Part shown: positions 3,315 through 34,441 of the stretch, piece by piece | Position numbering within the stretch: the first letter of the stretch is position 1 | Layout of the letters: every line of letters begins with the position of its first letter | Source of the DNA: a virus | DNA: 34,441 nucleotides | Strand: one strand, 5' to 3' | Virus genome (UHGV): UHGV-0156988 | Program-made: the position numbers and the translations under genes | Notes under the pieces: model-generated | Told to the model about the DNA's origin: nothing | Seen by the model: only the letters and a program-made list of their open reading frames with translations | The model's database searches: none

Positions 3315-4256
3315 TTACATAGATGTTTCGTTTAATTCTTCCCGACGAACGCTGTAAACGTCGGTGGCTTTTGCCAGCAGTTCGTCATCATCTGAAAGTT
3401 TTTGTGCAATGTATTTGTAAGCCTTATCCAGTTCGGAGACAGTGCTGTAATTCATCGCTGCGCTGGTAAAGGCCATCAGCATTTCTTCTGGATCACGGCT
3501 GTCCGATTTACGCGTTTGCTCATCAGGCTTTTTCGCTGGTTTAGCGTTGATCAGACTGTTCATTCCCGCAGCAGTGGTCGTTTGCGGAGTAATGTCTCGC
3601 TCAACGCGCGGTGCCGTTTCCTGTAATTCGTCTGGGGTGTAGACGCCCATGATTACGTCAGGACAGTGCAGGCGAGACCAGCGTTTTGTCGCAAGGTATG
3701 CGAGTTGTTGTTTCGGATCACTGGCCCAAAGTGTGGAGTTTCTTACCTGTGCTTGAGACAGCATTAACTCAAGCACTCGAGGTTGATCCTCGCCCTTCAT
3801 GGTTGCCCATACGCGAACACCGCAGCCTTCTTCGTCTTTTAGAGTCCAGCCTGGTGCGATATATGGATTGCCGTTTTTGGATGTTTTCTCAACAAACTTA
3901 CCGATCACGCGTTCCCACGGCCCGAACCACTCGTAGTTGATGCGATCTTTTGTTGGCGACATCGTTGAGATAACTGCGTTTACTAATTGGGCTTCATAAC
4001 CTAGCGTGCCGTTCACAACATGGGTTTTCTGAGCCACGGCAAACGGGTTCATTCCCCACTGCGCAGCCTGCATTGCCACGGCCATGCAATCAGCTGGTTT
4101 CCCGGCGAGGTGCGCCGGTACCGTTACGCGGCTTTGCGCCATTACCTCGGCGAATTTCATCAGTTGGTTCAAGCCGTCTGGGCTGAAAATAGTTGCAGCA
4201 GTTCCAGCGATTGCTGTGTCTACTGGTGCGTTGATGTTTGCGATGTCGTTGCTCAT
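3315..4256 (-). CDS. RecT/Red-beta family single-strand annealing protein
   Basis: C-terminal half resembles lambda Bet as recalled (DPKQQL...ERDITP segment); ATGA overlap with upstream nuclease gene; start taken at MSNDIAN. Confidence 0.8.
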   Translation of the reverse strand: MSNDIANINAPVDTAIAGTAATIFSPDGLNQLMKFAEVMAQSRVTVPAHLAGKPADCMAVAMQAAQWGMNPFAVAQKTHVVNGTLGYEAQLVNAVISTMSPTKDRINYEWFGPWERVIGKFVEKTSKNGNPYIAPGWTLKDEEGCGVRVWATMKGEDQPRVLELMLSQAQVRNSTLWASDPKQQLAYLATKRWSRLHCPDVIMGVYTPDELQETAPRVERDITPQTTTAAGMNSLINAKPAKKPDEQTRKSDSRDPEEMLMAFTSAAMNYSTVSELDKAYKYIAQKLSDDDELLAKATDVYSVRREELNETSM

Positions 4257-24258: not shown

Positions 24259-24803
24259 TGTGCGATCCGGTTATTGCTGGTGGCGCAATGCTCGCCATGA
24301 GTGGCATTCAGGCATACACCCAGTACCAACAGGGAAAGTATGCCTCGAAGGTTGCAGAAGCGAACGCAGATATAGCCACTGCTCAGGCAAATGATGCAAT
24401 AAACAGAGGTAACGCTGAAGCTGAGCAACGGCGCAGAGAGCTCCGACAGCGGCTTGGTACACAGGCGGCGACAATGGGGGCGACCGGCGCTGATTTATCT
24501 ACCGGTAACGCGCTGGATATATTTGGCGACACTGCCCAGTTTGGCGCCCTTGATTCGCTGACGACGGTGAATAACGCGCAACGCGAGGCTTACGGTTATC
24601 AGGTTCAGGCTGCCAATTATAAAGCAGAAGCCAGTTCAGCCCGTAAACAGGGGAATGTGGGAGCAGCAACAACATTGCTCACTGCTCCTCTGAAGGCATA
24701 CGGTGCGTACCAGATGTTTGGTGGGACGTGGAGTCCGTTTACTCAAAGCACTCCTGCGCCAATCGGGGCAGCAGCAGGAACCAGATTACCCGGAGGATTA
24801 TAA
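24258..24803 (+). CDS. Internal virion protein B, T7 gp14-like
   Basis: 181 aa; N-terminus MCDPVIAGGAMLAMSGIQA resembles T7 gp14 N-terminus as recalled. Confidence 0.55.
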   Translation: MCDPVIAGGAMLAMSGIQAYTQYQQGKYASKVAEANADIATAQANDAINRGNAEAEQRRRELRQRLGTQAATMGATGADLSTGNALDIFGDTAQFGALDSLTTVNNAQREAYGYQVQAANYKAEASSARKQGNVGAATTLLTAPLKAYGAYQMFGGTWSPFTQSTPAPIGAAAGTRLPGGL

Positions 24804-27316
24804 TGCCAGTCGTACCAACAGTATCCGGACGCCAGGTTGAGAGCCGTGGAGTTCAGTCAGCAGGCTTGCAGACGTTTTCTCAGCCAGGTATTGGTGATGC
24901 TTTTGTTCGGGCAGGGACAGAGGCAATTGATGTTTTAGGGCAGGCAAAACAGCGTGCCAATATCGCTCTGGCTCAGGATGCTTCTCTTAGCTTAAGCCAG
25001 ATAAGCAGCGATCTGCTGAATAACCCTGAAACAGGTTTGCTTAACCTGAAAGGGAAAAATGCTATTGGAAAAGGTCAGGAGTATACGCAGCAGTTTGATG
25101 CCCAGGTCGAGCAACTGGCTATGTCGCTGCCGGATGAACAAGCTCGTAATGCTTTCATGCAGCAGGCGCAGCAGCAGCGCATTCAGTTCACTACGCAGGC
25201 CGGGCGGCACGAGATAGGGCAAATAAATGCCTACGAAGAAGGCCAGTTTCAGGCGACGCTGCTGAACAATGGTAAAAATGCCGCAGCATTGTATGGCGAC
25301 AACGCCGCATACGTATTGGCTAATAAGCAAACTTTCCAGCAAATTGAGGATTATGGCATTGCGCATGGCTGGAGCGACGAGCAAATCCAGGCCAAGAAAA
25401 TCGAGTTTAAAGAGAAGGTTGCTGATGCCGCATTGTCCCAGTGGTCGGCAAACAATGCGACCGCATTCATCCAAAGTAATGGCGAGTTAAGTGATACTGC
25501 TGCTGGAGCTCGCCGTGCTGTAACAGATAGTGGCTCTTCCGAGCGTGTCCGTGGCATACGCAACAATAACCCCGGAAATCTCGAATACAGCAAAACTAAT
25601 CCGTGGGTAGGCCAGACCGGTGATGATGGTAGATTTGCTAAATTCGAAACACCTGAACACGGGATTCGTGCATTAGGGCGGAACCTGATGTCGTATCAGC
25701 GGCAGGGTATTGATACCGTCAGCGAGATAATTAATCGCTGGGCACCGCCTACTGATAAAAATGACACTATGTCGTATATCAAAGCAGTGTGCGAACAACT
25801 TGGCGTTTCTGCTGATGAGCCTCTCGATGCATCTAATCCTGATACCCTGAAGGCGCTTTGTGCAGCCATTATCCATCATGAGAACGGTAGCCAGCCATAC
25901 AGTGATCAGCAGTTAACTGCTGGTGTCAGTGCAGCACTTGGTTTATCAACAATTCCAACCAACACCAAACGCTATACCGGTAATGCAGCATTCGATGCGG
26001 CATCTCCTGAGGCGCAGGCAAGTTTTATGCGACAGGCGGATCAACTGCGTCGGCAGCAGCAGGCTGAATATAAAACGATGATTGACAGCCAGGTTCGCGA
26101 TGCGACAGCTGCGTATATGCGTGGCGTTGAATTTCCTAACCCACCTGGTGAGGCTGATTTTATTGCAGCTTATGGAGTCAGAGAAGGAAACCTGCGATAT
26201 ACCGAGTTCAGAAATACGCAAATCGCCGGACAGTATATAGGCTCTTTCCGCAACATGCCGACAAGCAGCATTACAGCATATGTTGAGCAATTACGCCCGG
26301 ATACTGGTGAGACAGGGGAGGGTTATGCGGCACGAGCCGCTCTTTATGACAACGTTGTGTCGGCTGCAAGTCAGGTGATAAAGCAGCGACAGGCTGATCC
26401 TGTACAGTTCTCTCTTGCCGCCGGACAGGCAAAGCCTATCGACATGAGCAATAAGGATAACTTTGGACAGAGCGTTGCCTTGCGTGCTACTCAGGTCAGT
26501 GACCTTGCTAAGTCATATGGCACTCCACTGACGTTCTTTTCCAAAGACGAGGCCAATCAGATCGGTGTTTTCTTTCGTGATGCGCCCGTTTCCCAACAGG
26601 CAGCATATCTCGATACCATCAGGCAGAGCACTGGTGGTGGGCAGGTGTATATGTCAGCACTACAGCAGATCAGTGCCAACGCTCCATCTGCTGCCGTTGC
26701 CGGGATACTGATGGATAAGCCAGGTGGTATTTTGGCAGAAAAAAACTGGTTTAATCCGGATGTTTCCGTGTCTCCTGAAACCGCTGCGCAGACAATTCTT
26801 GCTGGCGCGGCGGCTCGTAAAGGTACTGATGACGCGAAAGGTATTCCGATGCCTAAAGATGCTGATCTCCGCCTTGAGTTTTCTGACATGGTGAAGGATG
26901 CATTTGCTGGTGATGCTCAGGGGGCATCAATGGCATACGAGATCGCAAAGGACTATTACGCTGGTGTGATGGCGAAAAAAGGCGTGATATCAGGCGAAAT
27001 TGACACTGATATCTGGAAACAGGCTGTTAACGTAGCTACAGGTGGCGTGCATGACTATAACGGAATGGGGAATGTCCTTTTGCCGTGGGGAATGTCTGCA
27101 GAGCAATTCGATAAGCAGGTTAATCAGGCTTGGAATGAACAAGTTGTCGGCTCCGGGATAAAAACACCGCCTGGTCAGTATGGTTTGCAAAGTTACGGCG
27201 ATAGTCAGTACCTGGTGAAACTTGGTACTGGTTATCTGCTGAAAGATGATGGTTCTCCCGTTGTTCTTAATCTGACACAGAAACGTCAGAGATTCTCCGG
27301 AGATATTCCGCAATGA
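24803..27316 (+). CDS. Internal virion / ejection protein, gp15-like
   Basis: 837 aa from ATG 24803 (TAATG overlap); Gln/Ala-rich helical regions; embedded segment GIRNNNPGNLE...W.G at 25540-25900. Confidence 0.55.
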   Translation: MPVVPTVSGRQVESRGVQSAGLQTFSQPGIGDAFVRAGTEAIDVLGQAKQRANIALAQDASLSLSQISSDLLNNPETGLLNLKGKNAIGKGQEYTQQFDAQVEQLAMSLPDEQARNAFMQQAQQQRIQFTTQAGRHEIGQINAYEEGQFQATLLNNGKNAAALYGDNAAYVLANKQTFQQIEDYGIAHGWSDEQIQAKKIEFKEKVADAALSQWSANNATAFIQSNGELSDTAAGARRAVTDSGSSERVRGIRNNNPGNLEYSKTNPWVGQTGDDGRFAKFETPEHGIRALGRNLMSYQRQGIDTVSEIINRWAPPTDKNDTMSYIKAVCEQLGVSADEPLDASNPDTLKALCAAIIHHENGSQPYSDQQLTAGVSAALGLSTIPTNTKRYTGNAAFDAASPEAQASFMRQADQLRRQQQAEYKTMIDSQVRDATAAYMRGVEFPNPPGEADFIAAYGVREGNLRYTEFRNTQIAGQYIGSFRNMPTSSITAYVEQLRPDTGETGEGYAARAALYDNVVSAASQVIKQRQADPVQFSLAAGQAKPIDMSNKDNFGQSVALRATQVSDLAKSYGTPLTFFSKDEANQIGVFFRDAPVSQQAAYLDTIRQSTGGGQVYMSALQQISANAPSAAVAGILMDKPGGILAEKNWFNPDVSVSPETAAQTILAGAAARKGTDDAKGIPMPKDADLRLEFSDMVKDAFAGDAQGASMAYEIAKDYYAGVMAKKGVISGEIDTDIWKQAVNVATGGVHDYNGMGNVLLPWGMSAEQFDKQVNQAWNEQVVGSGIKTPPGQYGLQSYGDSQYLVKLGTGYLLKDDGSPVVLNLTQKRQRFSGDIPQ

Positions 27317-29115
27317 GTTACTTTGGCCTTAATCCAGTAAACCAGAATCAGCAGCTTGACGAAGCAGCATCAAATCCAGCTGGCTTTAACAGCGATGTTG
27401 GTTTTTTCGACAATGCTGTAGGAGCGGCATTGTCTGGTTTGTACTCCGGGCTGGTGGCAAAGCCAGATCAGTTGCTATGGGCAGGGATGGATAAAATCGT
27501 ATCCCCGATTGCTCAGTTTGTTAACGAAAACACCTCGCTCAATGACACTTCAGTTTCATACATTGCTGAGCAGAGAAAACTAGCAGAGCAGCAGGTTAAG
27601 CGGCTGACGCCTGATGCCGCGACAACCGGAACCGCCGGGCAGGTCCTTTATGGGTTGTTCGATATGGGCGGGCAGGCTGTTGTTGGTACAACGCTCGGTG
27701 GTCCGGTCGGAGGTGCTGCGGCGGTAACTTCGCTACAGGGTTTTTCTGAGTTTGAACGGCTGACAGCACAGGGTGTTGATTTCAGGACGGCGCAGGAAGC
27801 GGGATTAGTGCAGGGTATTACTGCTGGTGCCGGAACACTGATCCCTATGAGCCTCGGGTTACGTGCTGGTGGTGCGCTGGCGGAAGGTGTGGCGGCTCAG
27901 CTTGCGCGGACGGGTGAAAGTTCAGTGCGACGCGCCGCAGCAACAGCAGTACGTGCAACGCCAGATATTGCCTATGCCGCAGGTACAAATATTGCGTTCG
28001 GTATGGCACAGCGTGGGCTTACTGCAAAAACGCTTCGTGATGGTGGCTATAGCGAAATGGCTAATCAGTATGATGTGTTGGATCGACAGGCAATTGCTAT
28101 TGATGCTGTTCTTGGAGTGGCGTTTGGTGGTGTCGGCAGATTTATTAACTCTCGCGGCGAGTCTACAAGCGCACCAAATTTTTCACCAGTTGATGTCGAT
28201 GCTGCACTGGCGGCGAATGCCGCTCATCATGCTGAAATTGATATTGCTCCCGGTGTGCCGATCAACGTGCTTTCGCGTAATTCGCACATTCAGGCTCTGC
28301 GAAAAGCCATGTCTGATGTTAGCCAGGGGATACCTGTAGACGTTGCCAGCATTGTTGAGTCTGCATCTTTCAGTGAAATTCCTGGGCGCAAGAGTCTGCT
28401 TTCTCAGGCAGTTAATGAGGCTCTGTCATCTGTAGATGATGGAGTAACGGCGCGCGCTATAGAAAATCGGTTGCTTGAAGAACAGGCCGCGCAGCTTTTG
28501 CCGCGTGGCGATAGACAGGTTTACCAGTCTGAAATCGCTAATAGCCAACGAATTATTGAAAATCTCACTGAACAGCGCGCACAAATTCTTGCAGAAGAGC
28601 CAACCGGTAGCGGTAAAGCTTTGTCTCGTGCTCGATCAGATAAACAGGCCAGACTTCGCGATATTGATCAACGAATCCGGCAGGCACAAGAACGCCTGGA
28701 GTTTTCCCGTAACGCGTTGGCACCGCACGAGCCTGGCGGTCAGTTTTTTGAAGCTCGAGCAGAACTGGCACGACGACAGCAGGCAGAAAGTGAACTTAAT
28801 GCTCAGGCTGTTTCATTCTATAAAACAGCAGAGGTCAGGACGCCAGACGAAGTAGCTCCTTTTGAGCCCGGTAAGATATTGCAACAGACAGAACAAAAAA
28901 TGATGGCAGATCCGGCAGGAGATATTGATCTGCGTATAGCTGAAGACTCGCTGCTTGAATCTCCGGACATGATAATCACCGTGCTGGATGATGATGGTAA
29001 TCCACAATCGCGCAGTGCGCGTGAAGTACTGGATGAAGCGAACAGGGAAAGTGAGCAGGCAATACAGGATTCCAGCCTGTTTGATGTTGCTGTGGCGTGT
29101 TTCTTGAGAGGTTAA
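27313..29115 (+). CDS. Internal virion / ejection protein (possible N-terminal part of a split gp16 analogue)
   Basis: 600 aa; ATGA overlap with upstream gene; Ala/Gly-rich N-terminal half. Confidence 0.5.
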   Translation: MSYFGLNPVNQNQQLDEAASNPAGFNSDVGFFDNAVGAALSGLYSGLVAKPDQLLWAGMDKIVSPIAQFVNENTSLNDTSVSYIAEQRKLAEQQVKRLTPDAATTGTAGQVLYGLFDMGGQAVVGTTLGGPVGGAAAVTSLQGFSEFERLTAQGVDFRTAQEAGLVQGITAGAGTLIPMSLGLRAGGALAEGVAAQLARTGESSVRRAAATAVRATPDIAYAAGTNIAFGMAQRGLTAKTLRDGGYSEMANQYDVLDRQAIAIDAVLGVAFGGVGRFINSRGESTSAPNFSPVDVDAALAANAAHHAEIDIAPGVPINVLSRNSHIQALRKAMSDVSQGIPVDVASIVESASFSEIPGRKSLLSQAVNEALSSVDDGVTARAIENRLLEEQAAQLLPRGDRQVYQSEIANSQRIIENLTEQRAQILAEEPTGSGKALSRARSDKQARLRDIDQRIRQAQERLEFSRNALAPHEPGGQFFEARAELARRQQAESELNAQAVSFYKTAEVRTPDEVAPFEPGKILQQTEQKMMADPAGDIDLRIAEDSLLESPDMIITVLDDDGNPQSRSAREVLDEANRESEQAIQDSSLFDVAVACFLRG

Positions 29116-29120
29116 ATTAA

Positions 29121-31595
29121 ATGAGACAGGAATGTATACAAGCGGTCCAGCAGGCGGCGCAGCGCACGTTAACGGCGCGAGAAATACAGAACATTGAAGA
29201 CCGCATTTATCGAAATATGCGCTCCATTGCTCGTGATGACCCGATGTCGTGGCGACAACTTTCCGAATCAGAACGGTTGTATCGTGCAGCACAATTGGCA
29301 TCTGAAGAATTACAGCGAGAAGCGGCATTAAAGAAACGTCGTGTGGCCCTCACTATAGCCGCACGTCAGAGATTGGATAAATTTATCAATAGCTATCAAG
29401 GGGCTGATGGGAAACTTGGCGCTCTTAACCGTACTATTGCTTTTAATGCAGACGGTAAATCGAATTTCCTCTCTGTTGAATCCAGAACAAAAGCCACCCG
29501 TGATTATGCATTGAGTCAATTGCAGGAGGCATTCGAAGCAGTTGATCCTCGCTTTTTTGGTCTGTTTGAAGATGAAGCGGGCGTACGTGACCTGGTATAT
29601 GAAATGCGGGGGCAAAATACTGGCAATGCTAAAGCAAGAAAAGGTGCTAAGGCGTGGAGAGAAGTTACAGAGCTGCTGCGCCGCCGGTTTAATGATGCTG
29701 GTGGGGACATTGGCTATCTCGAAAACTGGGGGATCCCTCAACATCATTCTATGGAAAAGGTTGGGGCGGTATCAAAAGATAAATGGGTTAGCGATGTTAT
29801 AGGTAAGCTGGATCGCAAATATTATACCCGAGCCGATGGACAACTGATGAACGATGCCGAGTTGTCTGCATTTCTTGGAGAGGCTTATAACACGATCGCT
29901 ACTGGTGGGCTGAATAAGCTTACTGATACCGGAATGCGAATTTCCGGCGCACGTGCTAACCGTGGTAATGCATCACGACAGATACATTTCAAAGATGCAG
30001 ATTCCTATCTGCAATATCAGCAACTTTATGGCGATCGCTCTCTATGGGAAATCATGGTCGGTCACCTTGAAGGTATCAGTAAAGATATTGCACTGGTGGA
30101 AACATATGGCCCAAACCCCGATCATGTTTTCCGCTCTCTTCTTGATCAGGTGAAGGCAGAAACGGCAACAGCTAACCCGAGTAAAACCGGTAAAGTCGAG
30201 CGGCTGGCGAACAACACAGAGAATCTGTACAACTTTATTTCCGGAAAGACACAGCCTGTAGCGAATCCGCACATCGCGCGATGGTCTGACAATATCCGCA
30301 ACTGGCTGGTTGCCAGCAGACTCGGATCCGCGTTGCTGTCATCGTTCTCTGATCTTGGAACCATGTATCTGTCTGCGAAGGTTACCAACCTTCCAATGAA
30401 CCAGTTATTCCGCAACCAGCTTGAAGCTATGGACCCAACGAACCGTACAGAACTTGCGCGGGCGCGCCGCGCTGGTCTGGCGATGGAATCTCTACTTGGC
30501 AGCGTTAACCGCTGGGCGATGGATAATATGGGGCCGTCTGTGTCTCGTTGGGCTGCAACGGCGGTAATGCGTGCCAGTGGGCTTACAGCATGGTCAGATG
30601 CGCACAAGCGCGCCTATGGCGTAACCATGATGGGAAGCCTGGGAGAAGTAGTGTCACGGACACCAGACCTTCGTAGCCTCGATGATTCTGATTTTCGTAT
30701 CCTGAAAAGCAAAGGGATTACTGACACAGACTGGAGCGTATGGAAGCTGGCGCAACAGGAGGACTGGGGGAACGGCAATAATACGATGCTGACACCGGAA
30801 AGCATTATGCGTATCCCTGATTCAGCAGTTAAACATCTTGGTGAGCCTGAACGCGTGAAATTTGAGGCAATGCGTAAACTGCTCGGTGCCGTAACTGAAG
30901 AAGTTGATATGGCTGTTATTACACCGGGAGCACGTGAGCAACTGATAACCGGTTCTGGTATTCAGCGTGGAACATGGAAAGGTGAATTAACGAGAAGTGT
31001 TTTCCTGTTTAAATCGTTCCCTATCTCGGTGGTTATGCGTCACTGGTCACGCGCTATGGGTATGCCGTCTGCTGGTGGGCGTGCGGCATATATTGCGACG
31101 TTTATTGCCAGTACGACCATTCTTGGCGCTTTGTCGCAGCAACTTAACGACCTTGCGTCTGGTCGTAATCCTCGCGAGATGACAGGAGAAGATGCTGCTA
31201 AATTTTGGCTTGGTGCTCTACTGAAAGGTGGTGGTCTTGGCCTTTACGGTGACTTTTTATTGTCAGATCACACTAGGTACGGAAGCGGCGCGCTGGCGTC
31301 GATGCTTGGCCCGGTAGCTGGTCTGGTTGATGACGTAGTGAAGATTGCTCAGGGCATACCGTTAAATGCTGTGGAAGGGAAGAGTGAGCAGACTGGTGGT
31401 GATCTGGTGAAGCTGGGGAAAGGTTTGATGCCAGGTGCGAATCTCTGGTACTTAAAGGCGGCTCTCGATCATATGATCTTTAACCAGATGCAGGAGTATT
31501 TTTCACCAGGCTATTTGCGTAAAATGGAGCAACGTTCGAAGAAAGAGTTTAACCAGACATACTGGTGGCGACCTCAGGATGTCACTCCGCAATAA
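29121..31595 (+). CDS. Internal virion / ejection protein (possible C-terminal part of a split gp16 analogue)
   Basis: 824 aa; last large gene before tailspike. Confidence 0.5.
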   Translation: MRQECIQAVQQAAQRTLTAREIQNIEDRIYRNMRSIARDDPMSWRQLSESERLYRAAQLASEELQREAALKKRRVALTIAARQRLDKFINSYQGADGKLGALNRTIAFNADGKSNFLSVESRTKATRDYALSQLQEAFEAVDPRFFGLFEDEAGVRDLVYEMRGQNTGNAKARKGAKAWREVTELLRRRFNDAGGDIGYLENWGIPQHHSMEKVGAVSKDKWVSDVIGKLDRKYYTRADGQLMNDAELSAFLGEAYNTIATGGLNKLTDTGMRISGARANRGNASRQIHFKDADSYLQYQQLYGDRSLWEIMVGHLEGISKDIALVETYGPNPDHVFRSLLDQVKAETATANPSKTGKVERLANNTENLYNFISGKTQPVANPHIARWSDNIRNWLVASRLGSALLSSFSDLGTMYLSAKVTNLPMNQLFRNQLEAMDPTNRTELARARRAGLAMESLLGSVNRWAMDNMGPSVSRWAATAVMRASGLTAWSDAHKRAYGVTMMGSLGEVVSRTPDLRSLDDSDFRILKSKGITDTDWSVWKLAQQEDWGNGNNTMLTPESIMRIPDSAVKHLGEPERVKFEAMRKLLGAVTEEVDMAVITPGAREQLITGSGIQRGTWKGELTRSVFLFKSFPISVVMRHWSRAMGMPSAGGRAAYIATFIASTTILGALSQQLNDLASGRNPREMTGEDAAKFWLGALLKGGGLGLYGDFLLSDHTRYGSGALASMLGPVAGLVDDVVKIAQGIPLNAVEGKSEQTGGDLVKLGKGLMPGANLWYLKAALDHMIFNQMQEYFSPGYLRKMEQRSKKEFNQTYWWRPQDVTPQ

Positions 31596-31604
31596 GGAAG
31601 TGTT

Positions 31605-31781
31605 GTGTTTTTAATTATTTTGAGTGTGATAATTTCTGGTGGGTTGTTATTTATTGACCGCTACAAATATTTTCTTAACCCTCAGACTCAAGCTATTTGC
31701 TGGTTCATCTTTGTTGTGCAGGGAATAGTTCTTGTTGCAAGCCTTATTGAGGGGAGGCCTCTGATTTTTACTGGGTAAATA
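31605..31781 (+). CDS. Small hydrophobic peptide, two predicted TM segments
   Basis: Not in ORF track; GTG 31605 (or 31626) after AGGAAG; about 58 aa, almost entirely hydrophobic. Confidence 0.25.
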
Positions 31782-31790
31782 GGTGACTAC

Positions 31791-32087
31791 ATGCAAGCTA
31801 TAGGATTCATTGTTTATATCGTCGTTGGTCTTTTTCAGTTGGCAGCAATTATGGCTGGGCTTGAATCATGGTGGGGATTGCACTGGATAATTGCAGCCCC
31901 CATTGCTTTCATCGTGAGCTATATTCCATTTGTTGGAGCGATTGTTGGTATGGTTGGCGCTGTGGATGTATGGCGGTGGGAGTGGTGGCAGGCTGGCCTT
32001 CTCTTCTTTGGTGGGATCATCTTTGCTATTGTCTGCGGTGGAATGTCATCATTTTTCGAATGGCTATCATTCAGAAAAAGAGCGTGA
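31791..32087 (+). CDS. Small integral membrane protein, three predicted TM segments
   Basis: 98 aa, SD AGGTGA; Gly/Ile/Val/Trp-rich hydrophobic stretches with basic C-terminus FRKRA. Confidence 0.6.
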   Translation: MQAIGFIVYIVVGLFQLAAIMAGLESWWGLHWIIAAPIAFIVSYIPFVGAIVGMVGAVDVWRWEWWQAGLLFFGGIIFAIVCGGMSSFFEWLSFRKRA

Positions 32088-32095
32088 CATGTCAC

Positions 32096-32113
32096 AGGCC
32101 GCTCTTGCGGCCT
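32096..32113. terminator. Bidirectional terminator hairpin between convergent genes
   Basis: AGGCCGC-TCTT-GCGGCCT; TTTAAATTT on plus side, CTCTTTTTCT on minus side; abuts GTGACATGTCAC at 32084-32095. Confidence 0.55.
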
Positions 32114-32119
32114 TTAAAT

Positions 32120-32377
32120 TTACCGGGTTTGTTTTCGTAATTGTTCGGCACAATAGTCGAGATGTGTTTGCAGATCCCGCATAGACATCTGTGAGCTGGT
32201 GACGTAGTTAATCAGTGCAGTCAGTTCGGCAAGTGGGCCATCGACATTAAATCCATCCTTATCGAGATCCCGGAGTAATTTCATCAAGTGCGATCCTTCC
32301 ACCAGTGACCTGACGCCTCCCGGCGTGTGAATCCTTTCGGTAAATCCGTCTTCCAGTGGATAGTGATACTGCTGCAT
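32120..32377 (-). CDS. LexA-controlled small acidic protein, candidate antirepressor
   Basis: 85 aa from MQQYHY with SD GGAGAAG; LexA box at 32398-32417 overlaps a TGtATAAAT extended -10; own terminator. Confidence 0.5.
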   Translation of the reverse strand: MQQYHYPLEDGFTERIHTPGGVRSLVEGSHLMKLLRDLDKDGFNVDGPLAELTALINYVTSSQMSMRDLQTHLDYCAEQLRKQTR

Positions 32378-32397
32378 CTTAATCTTCTCCATGCAAT

Positions 32398-32417
32398 AAC
32401 TGTATATTTATACAGTA
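32398..32417 (-). promoter_or_regulatory. LexA (SOS) box
   Basis: Plus-strand AACTGTATATTTATACAGTA: CTGT-N8-ACAG with AT-rich spacer, one or two mismatches from TACTGTATATATATACAGTA. Confidence 0.7.
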
Positions 32418-32454
32418 GCAAATAATTTGTTTGCTATCCAGCACGTTTTGCAAA

Positions 32455-32469
32455 TTACCAGAAAGGTAA
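32455..32469 (+). promoter_or_regulatory. Operator site upstream of tailspike gene
   Basis: Perfect TTACC-AGAAA-GGTAA between the LexA-controlled gene and the tailspike gene. Confidence 0.45.
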
Positions 32470-32575
32470 TATCTATTCGTATCCATAGTTTTTCTATGCA
32501 TATATGGTTTTTCAGGTAATAGAATGGATGGGACTGCATGCGCGATGGGCGCACAAGCTATCCGGAGATAATGAC

Positions 32576-33889
32576 ATGACGGTCTCAACCGAAGTCGACC
32601 ATAACGAATACACCGGGAATGGCGTCACGACGATATTCCCTTATACCTTCAGAATTTTTCAGAAGTCTGATCTGGTTGTTCAGGTTGTAGACCTGGATGA
32701 AAACTTGACAGTATTGACACTTGATACAGATTACACGGTAACTGGTGCAGGCGGTTACGCTGGTGGGAATGTCACCCTGACGACAGCGCTCGTAAGCGGT
32801 TACCAGATATCTATATCTCGAGAGCTTCCAGTTACCCAGGAAACAGATCTTCGCAATCAGGGTAAGTTCTTTGCAGAAGTTCATGAGGATGCTTTTGATA
32901 AACTGACAATGCTGATCCAACAGGTTCGCAGCTGGTTTAGCCTTGCGCTTCGTAAACCATCATTTATTGCAAACTATTATGATGCGCTGAACAATTACAT
33001 TCGTAATCTAAGAGACCCAGAAAGGCCTCAAGATGCAGCAACCAGAAACTATGTTGATACAGTATCAACGGCAAACCTCAATCGAACACTTCGTACGCCT
33101 GAACCTATCCCAGAACTACCTGGAGTTGAAGAGCGTAAAAATAAACTTGTTGCTATGGATGATTCTGGTAATCCTATTATGGTATTGCCTGAATCAGGAT
33201 CTGCATCGGATGTTCTCATTGAACTTGCCAAGCCAACTGGGGCAGGGTTGATAGGCATTAAACCAGGAGGAAATGTTCAACAAGCGCTATATTACGTTAC
33301 TCCCGAACAGTTCGGGGCAATCGGAGATGGCACTCTTCATCTATTATCAGAAAAATATTCTACCCTAACTGACGCGCAGTCAGTGTATCCGCTTGCAACA
33401 AGTTTGTCTCAGTCAATTGATTGGGCTGCTATGCAAACAGCTGATAGTGTTGCTCGAGAATTAAAATGTTCGGTCCGTTGTCCAACGTTGAAAAAATACA
33501 GATTCTCATCCCTTGACACGTTAATGCTGGATATCGACAGTTGCTTTATTGGCGGTCCGCAATCTGATCATTTGCATGGGACAATGATAATCAAAGACAA
33601 ACCACCGGTGACAGCATCAACAAATATTGGCGATATCTGCATAGTCAAGGTCAAAAAGGCTTCCGACACTGTATCAACCAATGGATTTGTCAATGGAGTG
33701 GTATTCCAGGGTTTTTCTCTTGAGTGGGCAAATGTTGCGTGGATGTCCGCTGTTAAAGGTGATTTGTCAATTTGCCTTCATATGAACGATGCGATCAAAG
33801 CAAAAGTAGACGTCAGCGTATGGGGCGGGGAATTTGGGGTATACGGGTATGGCTGCTGGGGAATGGTTGGTACTTTGCCGAATGCATGA
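32576..33889 (+). CDS. Tailspike / tail fibre protein with T7 gp17-like N-terminal adaptor; probably 3-prime truncated
   Basis: Start at ATG 32576 (SD GGAG); N-terminal NEYTGNGVTTIFPYTF motif; later PEQFGAIGDG region suggests start of a beta-helix; only 438 aa and ends at a junction with unrelated sequence. Confidence 0.65.
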   Translation: MTVSTEVDHNEYTGNGVTTIFPYTFRIFQKSDLVVQVVDLDENLTVLTLDTDYTVTGAGGYAGGNVTLTTALVSGYQISISRELPVTQETDLRNQGKFFAEVHEDAFDKLTMLIQQVRSWFSLALRKPSFIANYYDALNNYIRNLRDPERPQDAATRNYVDTVSTANLNRTLRTPEPIPELPGVEERKNKLVAMDDSGNPIMVLPESGSASDVLIELAKPTGAGLIGIKPGGNVQQALYYVTPEQFGAIGDGTLHLLSEKYSTLTDAQSVYPLATSLSQSIDWAAMQTADSVARELKCSVRCPTLKKYRFSSLDTLMLDIDSCFIGGPQSDHLHGTMIIKDKPPVTASTNIGDICIVKVKKASDTVSTNGFVNGVVFQGFSLEWANVAWMSAVKGDLSICLHMNDAIKAKVDVSVWGGEFGVYGYGCWGMVGTLPNA

Positions 33890-34355
33890 AGAGATAATCG
33901 GCATGATCGGCCGACACGTGCCTGAGTTTGATATTGCGGCAGTTCCAAAGCGTTTCCATCGCGTCGGAGAGTTCTACCTGCTCGAGGTCGATATTTTCCA
34001 TGTCGCGGAACATCTTCGGCGCGTCGATTCGGGTGTGCTTCATGCGCACATCGTCGGCGTACCAGATGGCGGCGCGGGCGCCGGGCGAAAAGCGGCCGCC
34101 CTCGAGCACCACATGTTTGGCGTGCCAGAAGGGGTATTTGCCTTCAAAGAGGCATTCTCGGGCAGTGATGTTTTCGACGTGCTTTAAGGCGGATTCGCCC
34201 GGGTGAATGACAACGTGGTCGAGCTCCGCGCTGCGGAGCGCAAAAAGCGGGCGCTCACCGCCGTATTCGACATTTTGGAGGATCTGCATTTTTTGTCCTG
34301 TTTGAATGGTGAGGCTCACCCGAAAAAAAGCGATGCCGGCATCTCTTTGGGGCAT
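33813..34355 (-). CDS. Hypothetical protein in a compositionally distinct segment (possibly a truncated flanking gene)
   Basis: 180-aa ORF; 3-prime end overlaps tailspike ORF by 77 nt; segment looks more GC-rich than the prophage by eye; alternative start at 34289. Confidence 0.35.
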   Translation of the reverse strand: MPQRDAGIAFFRVSLTIQTGQKMQILQNVEYGGERPLFALRSAELDHVVIHPGESALKHVENITARECLFEGKYPFWHAKHVVLEGGRFSPGARAAIWYADDVRMKHTRIDAPKMFRDMENIDLEQVELSDAMETLWNCRNIKLRHVSADHADYLFMHSAKYQPFPSSHTRIPQIPRPIR

Positions 34356-34441
34356 CGTCGGGCAGCGATGATGAATCGCTTCAAACTCTAAGACCGCAGG
34401 CTTTGGCCCGCCCTGCTGATCGCCGCAAAGAACTGTACGAT

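Follow-up and report, generated by a model that had tools for sequence, protein, structure and literature searches.

The window (the whole 34,441-nucleotide stretch of the viral genome UHGV-0156988) carries, directly after its last ejection-protein gene, two small membrane-protein reading frames, ORF1 and ORF2, which are the last cistrons of the structural/ejection-protein operon and are closed by an intrinsic terminator. We suggest, at a probability of about 40%, that together they form an accessory cassette of inner-membrane proteins, which would interfere when related phages deliver their DNA, in a way analogous to SieA of phage P22. This reading is compatible with all of our observations, and its grounds are position, variability and analogy rather than homology or expression evidence. 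The function would be accessory and aimed at the cell envelope; transcription of the operon would bring with it production of the cassette proteins, perhaps to a low level in the lysogen as well, and these would most likely interfere at the inner membrane when related podophages inject their DNA, i.e., superinfection exclusion by analogy with P22 SieA, T4 Imm and HK97 gp15.

Annotations of epsilon15, phiV10 and SPN1S-like phages already include small hydrophobic genes behind gp17, and the wider kind, that of accessory membrane morons and exclusion genes, is familiar. The new points are modest: the ORF1 gene with its non-ATG start, the broad membrane-protein family of ORF2, for which there is no Pfam model, and the combinatorial nature of the slot in which such envelope cassettes reside.

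The cassette at the end of the ejection-protein operon

The window is a Uetakevirus prophage, i.e., an epsilon15/phiV10-like temperate podophage, and the DNA around the cassette also matches many E. coli prophages. On the minus strand, PHROG scans found a repressor and recombination genes of the RecT/RecE type; terminase, portal, capsid and large tail protein genes were found elsewhere in the window. The features that matter for the analysis are as follows.

50-1306: integrase (PHROG scan of the window)
24728-27316: large internal/ejection protein with matches to muralytic domains (PHROG scan)
27313-29115: large internal/ejection protein (PHROG scan)
29121-31595, + strand: gp17-like last ejection protein (internal virion protein) of 824 aa, matching the virion structural protein family phrog_684; left boundary of the slot
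31596-31600, + strand: Shine-Dalgarno sequence GGAAG of ORF1, 4 nt upstream of the GTG (from the sequence)
31605-31778, + strand: ORF1, putative 57-aa inner-membrane peptide forming a two-TM hairpin, GTG start (alignment, dN/dS, hydropathy, homologues)
31781-31786, + strand: Shine-Dalgarno sequence AGGTGA of ORF2, within the conserved junction TAAATAGGTGACTACATG (from the sequence)
31791-32087, + strand: ORF2, 98-aa predicted three-TM inner-membrane protein, ATG start (phrog_3075, dN/dS, AlphaFold2, hydropathy)
32096-32122, + strand: intrinsic terminator at the operon end, stem-loop 32096-32113 plus T-rich tail (terminator scan); right boundary of the slot
32120-32392, - strand: convergent gp19-like gene of 90 aa (phrog_450), between the cassette and the tailspike

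The gp17-like protein of the window shares 99.3% identity with phiV10 p20 and 28% with epsilon15 gp17, whose assigned homologue is IVP-D (internal virion protein D, gp16) of T7 (Hardies et al., PMC4819975); thus, the cassette lies directly 3' of an IVP-D gene. Spacing is tight, in that the gp17 stop codon occupies 31593-31595, ORF1 starts 9 nt downstream of it, and the stop of ORF1 is followed after 12 nt by the start of ORF2. The original prediction located the two genes between the ejection proteins and the tailspike, which is correct, but the minus-strand gene at 32120-32392 also intervenes. This gene is a homologue of epsilon15 gp19 and phiV10 p24, and its product gave a weaker match to the C-terminus of the anti-repressor family phrog_1760. 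In the window's prophage the tailspike is partly lost and everything beyond it is also gone; the cassette is still intact.

The terminator consists of a 7-bp stem with six G-C pairs (-14.5 kcal/mol) followed by the tail TTAAATTT. It had been described as bidirectional, which we could confirm for the plus strand. Support on the minus strand is partial: the hairpin lies 6 nt past the stop codon of the convergent gene, but there is no T run on that strand and the terminator scan makes no call there. A consensus scan, which is weak evidence in such matters, found no sigma-70-like promoter upstream of ORF1 and ORF2 in 31000-31790; the two sites that it returned both lie in the 3' end of ORF2, and their number is no higher than expected by chance. 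Furthermore, synonymous sites are saturated in the last 190 nt of gp17, so that this segment gives no sign of an embedded conserved promoter. An Rfam scan of 31300-32600 gave no match. G+C content dips to 0.38 over ORF1 as against about 0.50 in gp17. Terminator-like hairpins in the 3' end of ORF1 (31741-31762) were taken as chance occurrences, since their conservation does not extend to the Klebsiella-type sequence.

ORF1 is very probably a translated gene

The original prediction of a two-TM peptide with a non-ATG start stood in both respects but not in its extent: the peptide has 57 rather than 58 residues, and its TAA codon ends at 31778, 3 nt before 31781. Two hydrophobic stretches (residues 1-19 and 28-55 by hydropathy) flank a D-R-Y-K loop, and this basic loop (D18-R19-Y-K21) separates the two segments; application of the positive-inside rule to these segments suggests an N-out/C-out topology.

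To the reading that ORF1 is a gene there is a simple alternative, namely that it is not translated, that the 186 nt separating gp17 from ORF2 act as a spacer or as a regulatory leader, and that ORF2 is the sole gene. The non-ATG start and the omission of ORF1 from the PGAP annotation of most E. coli genomes speak for this alternative. To compare the two, we used an alignment of 56 distinct versions of the region, the window included. The frame was open in 53 of the 55 distinct relatives; the remaining two contain indels, and one of these two comes from a record that is rich in frameshifts. The chance of the frame staying open across 52 variable columns is about 14%, which favors an untranslated ORF1. 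Variable columns are distributed 16/14/22 over the three codon positions, which is a weak third-position bias among close relatives, and synonymous divergence is below that of the flanking genes; both points again favor an untranslated ORF1.

Other observations argue against it. Values of dN/dS were 0.17-0.24, with a significant synonymous excess (Fisher p = 1e-5 to 4e-4). Two valid start codons alternate, E. coli-type copies having GTG and those of the Klebsiella, Salmonella and Citrobacter types TTG, and a purine-rich Shine-Dalgarno sequence is kept ahead of ORF1 in all three junction variants (GGAAG, GGGGGA and GGGGAGGGGAG) despite their differing spacers. Gene callers have called homologues of 56-58 aa in Klebsiella, Salmonella, Enterobacter and Citrobacter, and the length and stop position of ORF1 are constant across five genera. 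In addition, a 54-aa homologue with an ATG start occupies the same slot of another prophage and is 29% identical over its full length (z = 9.9 versus shuffled sequences), and each Uetakevirus examined has a positional analogue of the same hairpin architecture. Given the open frame, the start switching, the retained Shine-Dalgarno sequence, the dN/dS values, the length shared by five genera and the ATG-start homologue, we conclude from sequence comparison that ORF1 is a genuine translated gene, with a residual doubt of a few percent, and that an untranslated interval is very improbable. Scans of ORF1 against Pfam, NCBIfam and PADLOC gave nothing above threshold, and the only PHROG match was marginal. 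Whatever the function, there is a practical point, in that automatic annotation regularly misses genes of the ORF1 type (non-ATG start, 57 aa).

ORF2 is a conserved gene of a broad membrane-protein family

ORF2 is a genuine protein-coding gene and corresponds exactly to the 98-aa three-TM protein that had been proposed, with its ATG at 31791, its stop ending at 32087 and AGGTGA as its Shine-Dalgarno sequence. Its variable columns fall at the three codon positions in numbers of 20/8/70, comparable to those of the gp17 C-terminus (10/3/47), and dN/dS was 0.02-0.03 relative to Klebsiella-type copies, indicating very strong purifying, not diversifying, selection. As claimed before, hydropathy gave two TM segments in ORF1 and three in ORF2. 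The hydrophobic stretches of ORF2 comprise residues 1-25, 28-61 and 66-90 and are followed by a basic C-terminal tail (RKR), and the positive-inside rule suggests an N-out/C-in topology. An AlphaFold2 model built with 28 homologues (mean pLDDT 90.6) places helices at residues 2-28, 32-42/46-59, with a kink at the invariant P46, and 65-97.

The protein matches PHROG 3075 over its full length (2.2e-54, 183 bits; residues 1-97 align with positions 1-97 of the 98-position profile). This family has no annotated function, so that membership names ORF2 but does not explain it. Alignment of the homologues showed that G13, Q16, P46, G53 and G56-A57 are invariant, that a Trp-rich interface motif, W-x-W-E-W-W-Q-A-G-L-L-F-F-G, is conserved, and that TM2 bears small-residue motifs. 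Scans against Pfam, NCBIfam and PADLOC yielded nothing above threshold for ORF2, and a Foldseek search of the model against PDB and BFVD found no match at E < 2.

A profile search with the family recovered 734 cluster representatives at E <= 0.001, among which some domains are fused to DUF805, RDD or MORN domains; these fusion partners gave no functional lead. In Microvirga, Ensifer, Allorhizobium and other Alphaproteobacteria, an ORF2 homologue lies directly upstream of a DUF6804 membrane protein, at loci that are apparently non-phage. The fusions and non-phage loci together show ORF2 to be the phage-borne form of a membrane domain that is widespread in bacteria and uncharacterised, and they indicate that the fold has a cellular role unrelated to phage exclusion.

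A lysis function is quite unlikely

The original prediction raised the possibility of a holin/antiholin pair displaced from a lysis cassette. Such a pair would oligomerise in the inner membrane late in infection and so trigger or modulate lysis. Several properties of the cassette are in line with such a pair: the proteins are small, have two and three TM segments, and are expressed with the late genes; spaced small residues in TM2 of ORF2 could pack helices; and the predicted N-out/C-in topology and short basic C-terminus of ORF2 resemble those of class I holins. Class I holins such as lambda S105 are proteins of about 100 aa with three TM segments, an N-out/C-in topology and late expression, and ORF2 shares size, segment number, predicted topology and timing with them. 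Unlike them, it has no neighboring endolysin, no dual-start motif and only a very short charged C-terminal domain, with about 8 residues past TM3 (ending RKRA). That no endolysin is adjacent had been recognized from the outset and proved right, the neighbors being gp17 and the convergent gp19-like gene. Among the Pfam holin models, the best match of ORF2 was to PF16079 (Phage_holin_5_2), at E = 0.027 and 15.2 bits; this is far under the curated cut-off of 29.2, and only 4 of the 28 ORF2 homologues show this sub-threshold match.

Furthermore, relatives with the same cassette keep lysis genes of their own. The ORF1-ORF2 cassette recurs in phage phiv142-3, where it is annotated as a single 118-aa Orf12; this phage also has a complete lysis cassette beyond its tail fibre that comprises a membrane protein, a holin, an endolysin and an endopeptidase. 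In prophages of Cronobacter, Salmonella and Citrobacter that carry ORF2 or ORF1 homologues, the holin and endolysin genes sit elsewhere: those of Cronobacter and Citrobacter have Phage_holin_8 and Phage_holin_3_7 genes, followed in Cronobacter by a GH19 endolysin and Rz, and that of Salmonella has Phage_holin_2_1 and a lysozyme. Close relatives that lack ORF2 entirely, and the frequency of the family at non-phage loci, also argue against a lysis function. Together, the separate lysis cassettes of the relatives, the sub-threshold match, the tiny C-terminal tail and the non-phage relatives leave the holin pair unsupported, and we regard a role in lysis or its timing as quite unlikely.

The slot after gp17 is swappable

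We compared the slot in 80 IMG/VR loci, in all of which the C-terminus of gp17 shares 95-100% identity with that of the window. ORF1 and ORF2 occupy it in 31 of these loci, a 46-aa p21-type peptide in 26, and a two-TM peptide with a 126-aa lipoprotein (lipobox LVGC) in 8; further contents were the lipoprotein alone and a 48-aa peptide with a 103-aa signal-peptide protein. By hydropathy, all of the cassette products are envelope proteins. Irrespective of the cassette, a GGCCGC...GCGGCC hairpin ends the slot in 72 of the 80 loci, and every Uetakevirus examined has a small membrane-bound product between gp17 and the conserved GGCCGC hairpin. In phiV10, with a gp17 that is 99.3% identical to that of the window, the slot holds only a 46-aa two-TM peptide.

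That peptide (p21), epsilon15 gp18 (64 aa) and SPC32H_019 (46 aa) are two-TM hairpins with a basic loop. They share with ORF1 the slot, the strand, the terminator and this hairpin architecture, but have no detectable sequence similarity to it, and their phages lack ORF2; they are positional analogues of ORF1.

Partners vary on both sides. ORF2 may be preceded by ORF1, by a 103-aa two-TM protein, by a signal-peptide protein of 102-123 aa, by the 54-aa ORF1 homologue or by nothing, and the junction TAAATAGGTGACTACATG is conserved 5' of ORF2 behind the first three of these. Conversely, ORF1 may be followed by ORF2, by the lipoprotein, by an epsilon15 gp18-type peptide, or by a 93-aa membrane protein and then ORF2. 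ORF1 and ORF2 are therefore one combination in a shuffled array and not a fixed pair.

The cassette of the window is present in 216 of 5426 complete E. coli genomes (roughly 4%), and its presence differs between otherwise near-identical genomes, as is the rule for accessory genes (morons). Such variation and this carriage also speak for a moron directed at the host, which would alter the envelope physiology of the lysogen or infected cell and have no role against other phages. Membrane stress tolerance, transport, and serum or bile resistance are traits that the cassette would then affect, in the way that lambda bor and lom are envelope morons of a late region. The mainly cellular membrane domain of ORF2, with its DUF805, RDD and DUF6804 associations, and the intactness of the cassette in a prophage that has lost part of its tailspike and all beyond it, likewise favor a host-directed function. 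However, the promoter scan detected no promoter, no similarity to known conversion or virulence factors was found, the study of phiv142-3 did not single out this gene, and a host-directed function leaves unexplained why the cassette has been placed repeatedly right after the IVP-D gene in diverged lineages. We consider such a function possible, if doubtful.

Relation to the ejection proteins

Three lineages have an ORF2 homologue directly 3' of their last large internal virion protein, namely the window type, the Cronobacter/L057 type and a Salmonella prophage with T7-like gene order, and these virion proteins are only 22-27% identical to one another. This recurrent synteny could mean that the small membrane proteins serve the phage's own ejection proteins, by handling the newly made, membrane-active internal virion proteins, by shielding the inner membrane of the producing cell from them, or as minor virion components. 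The co-transcription and tight packing of the cassette with gp15-gp17, and the presence of some small two-TM peptide after gp17 in almost all Uetakeviruses examined, point in the same direction. On the other hand, ORF2 does not co-vary with the neighboring gp17: an ORF2 that is 94% identical stands behind a gp17 of 24% identity, whereas phiV10, with a gp17 of 99% identity, lacks ORF2. Moreover, the two-TM peptides of the slot belong to at least three families without detectable similarity, and some prophages have no two-TM peptide at all. We regard an accessory function in ejection as unlikely. The narrower idea of a dedicated partner of the gp17 encoded in cis was rejected on the lack of co-variation, which would fit a factor of broad action or simply a preferred insertion site.

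Possible superinfection exclusion and comparison with known systems

Interference with the DNA delivery of related phages remains our preferred reading; superinfection exclusion was also among the options of the original prediction, beside other membrane factors. In its favor are the position at the end of the ejection-protein operon, the accessory and swappable nature of the cassette, the recurrence of ORF2 homologues behind the last internal virion protein of three diverged lineages, and the precedent of P22 SieA. Other observations count against it. No promoter was found upstream of the cassette, which leaves expression in the lysogen, as needed for classical exclusion, unsupported. Comparison of ORF1, ORF2 and the gp19-like protein with the PADLOC defence models yielded no family at E <= 1. 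The strong conservation of ORF2 (dN/dS 0.02) and its cellular pedigree count against exclusion, as does the consideration that the operon end may be merely permissive for insertions. In the literature we found nothing on WP_001147905 or on the function of epsilon15 gp18, and the papers found that mention Uetakevirus and superinfection did not concern this locus; the study of phiv142-3 does not mention orf12, and its supplement contains no orf12 data.

If the cassette does block DNA delivery, it would provide a SieA-like handle on the T7 gp16-type podophage ejectosome, about whose inner-membrane step little is understood. Part of the pattern of phage resistance among its E. coli carriers would then be accounted for, with a bearing on phage typing and on biocontrol with phiV10-like or SPN1S-like phages, and a broad family of membrane proteins that has no Pfam model would obtain its first function. 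If exclusion is false, the cassette is one more unannotated pair of small membrane morons.

A more far-reaching proposal, which we regard as speculative and rather improbable, is that the slot after IVP-D in temperate podophages is a dedicated, combinatorial exclusion island. Its products would hit the incoming ejection conduit in different layers of the envelope, with a lipoprotein in the outer membrane, a periplasmic protein, and two-TM and three-TM proteins in the inner membrane, and ORF2 would found a new class of injection blockers derived from a widespread and wholly uncharacterised membrane domain of bacteria that lacks a Pfam family.

The closest precedent known is SieA of P22, a three-TM inner-membrane protein whose gene lies between gene 16, the last ejection-protein gene, and the tailspike gene (PMC10883804). 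SieA blocks DNA injection, mutations that escape it map to the ejection proteins gp16 and gp20, and sieA is found in 22 of 66 P22-like phages in very divergent sequence types (PMC10883804). ORF2 resembles SieA in its three predicted TM segments and in its predicted inner-membrane location, and the cassette resembles sieA in lying between the last ejection-protein gene and the tailspike of a temperate podophage and in occurring in only some relatives. The differences are considerable. SieA has 162-164 aa and ORF2 has 98; a BLASTP comparison with SieA revealed no similarity (E = 2 over 10 residues), and neither ORF1 nor ORF2 contains FxRYPxEAxxFNK, the motif of SieA (PMC10883804). Whereas sieA is on the opposite strand and has its own annotated promoter, ORF1 and ORF2 are co-oriented with the late genes, and the neighboring ejection protein is of the T7 IVP-D type at ORF1/ORF2 but of the P22 gp16 type at sieA (PMC4819975).

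As a set, the contents of the slot (two-TM peptides, periplasmic proteins, lipoproteins and a three-TM protein) mirror the classes to which T4 Imm and Sp and HK97 gp15 belong. All three are small envelope proteins that stop DNA entry of a superinfecting phage: Imm is a small two-TM inner-membrane protein, Sp is periplasmic and has about 100 aa, and HK97 gp15 is the inner-membrane product of a late-region moron. They differ from the present genes in that imm and sp are early genes in T4, a virulent phage, and in that the HK97 prophage expresses gp15. The repertoire of the slot also recalls the Cor/Llp lipoproteins.

Synonymous divergence and annotation of ORF1

E. coli-type and Klebsiella-type copies of the small envelope-protein genes were compared. 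Synonymous divergence of ORF1, the two-TM peptide gene at window 31605-31778, was found to be 0.56-0.72, clearly lower than that of ORF2, the adjacent three-TM protein gene (dS 1.1-2.3), and lower than that of the gp17 C-terminus, which was saturated in the same comparison. An overlapping nucleic-acid element, e.g. an ORF2 promoter or leader, could account for the low value, as could a more recent exchange. Furthermore, 6 of the 56 distinct sequences carried an additional T 3' of the ORF1 stop (TAAATTAGG in place of TAAATAGG), among them the following locus as well as L120 and L137:

L013 (phiv142-3) 3577-3933, Orf12

The published phiv142-3 record gives ORF2 as a 118-aa protein, whose N-terminal extension overlaps the ORF1 3' end, and has no entry for ORF1 itself.

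A spacer was also recognized downstream of ORF1-type genes in Citrobacter and Salmonella prophages:

L187-L189, 4175-4280, spacer of ~100 nt 3' of the ORF1-type gene

Its sequence, TAAATTGC.GAAC..AGCTGGAATTCAA.ACAAC..., was conserved even though the next gene encoded a lipoprotein, a 93-aa membrane protein or a gp18-type product, and the spacer may be a recombination joint or a regulatory element.

Gene neighbours and domain fusions of the ORF2 family

In Alphaproteobacteria, a gene for a DUF6804 membrane protein lies directly 3' of the ORF2-family gene at apparently non-phage loci, and the pair is a conserved two-gene module:

L016 6001-6646, ORF2-family gene and DUF6804 gene (layout shared by L018, L021 and L022)

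The family domain was also found fused to DUF805 (three proteins), RDD (one) and MORN repeats (one), and four matched stretches of it occurred within a single 427-aa protein, P0057. The proteins listed as fusions or repeats were P0057; P0076, P0079, P0095; P0077; and P0159.

Ejection protein and right end of the prophage

window 24728-27316, first large ejection protein, 862 aa
window 32504-34355, tailspike ORF and adjoining minus-strand ORF matching DUF3737

The ejection protein matched endolysin and transglycosylase families (phrog_1044 and phrog_7182), and its Cronobacter counterpart carries a Pfam SLT domain. Thus, the gene for a predicted muralytic activity lies two genes 5' of the cassette, and the product is a virion-borne enzyme and not a lysis endolysin.

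The tailspike ORF has only 461 aa, compared to 695-1070 aa in relatives, and tailspike profiles matched only its first ~315 residues. It runs into the minus-strand ORF, which covers only positions 3-137 of the DUF3737 model (275 positions in total), and near 33870-33900 G+C rises from ~0.43 to 0.61. It therefore seems that the prophage was cut inside the tailspike gene and joined to a truncated host gene. Because its conversion and lysis genes are gone, it is probably defective. The phage part of the window matches E. coli prophages at up to 100% identity; the right end (33700-34441, including the DUF3737 fragment) had no match among 5426 complete E. coli genomes and the plasmids of PLSDB, even when the search was run at blastn sensitivity. 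The host may be other than E. coli.

Region between the cassette and the tailspike

window 32120-32392, minus strand, gp19-like 90-aa protein (phrog_450)

The gp19-like protein also matched the C-terminal part of the anti-repressor family phrog_1760 (5.5e-7). The epsilon15 annotation places a repressor-binding site and an IHF site immediately 5' of the homologous gene. The interval from the slot to the tailspike varies in content among relatives, with Bro-N anti-repressors, HicAB, DUF2335 and other genes. This region resembles an immI-like region.
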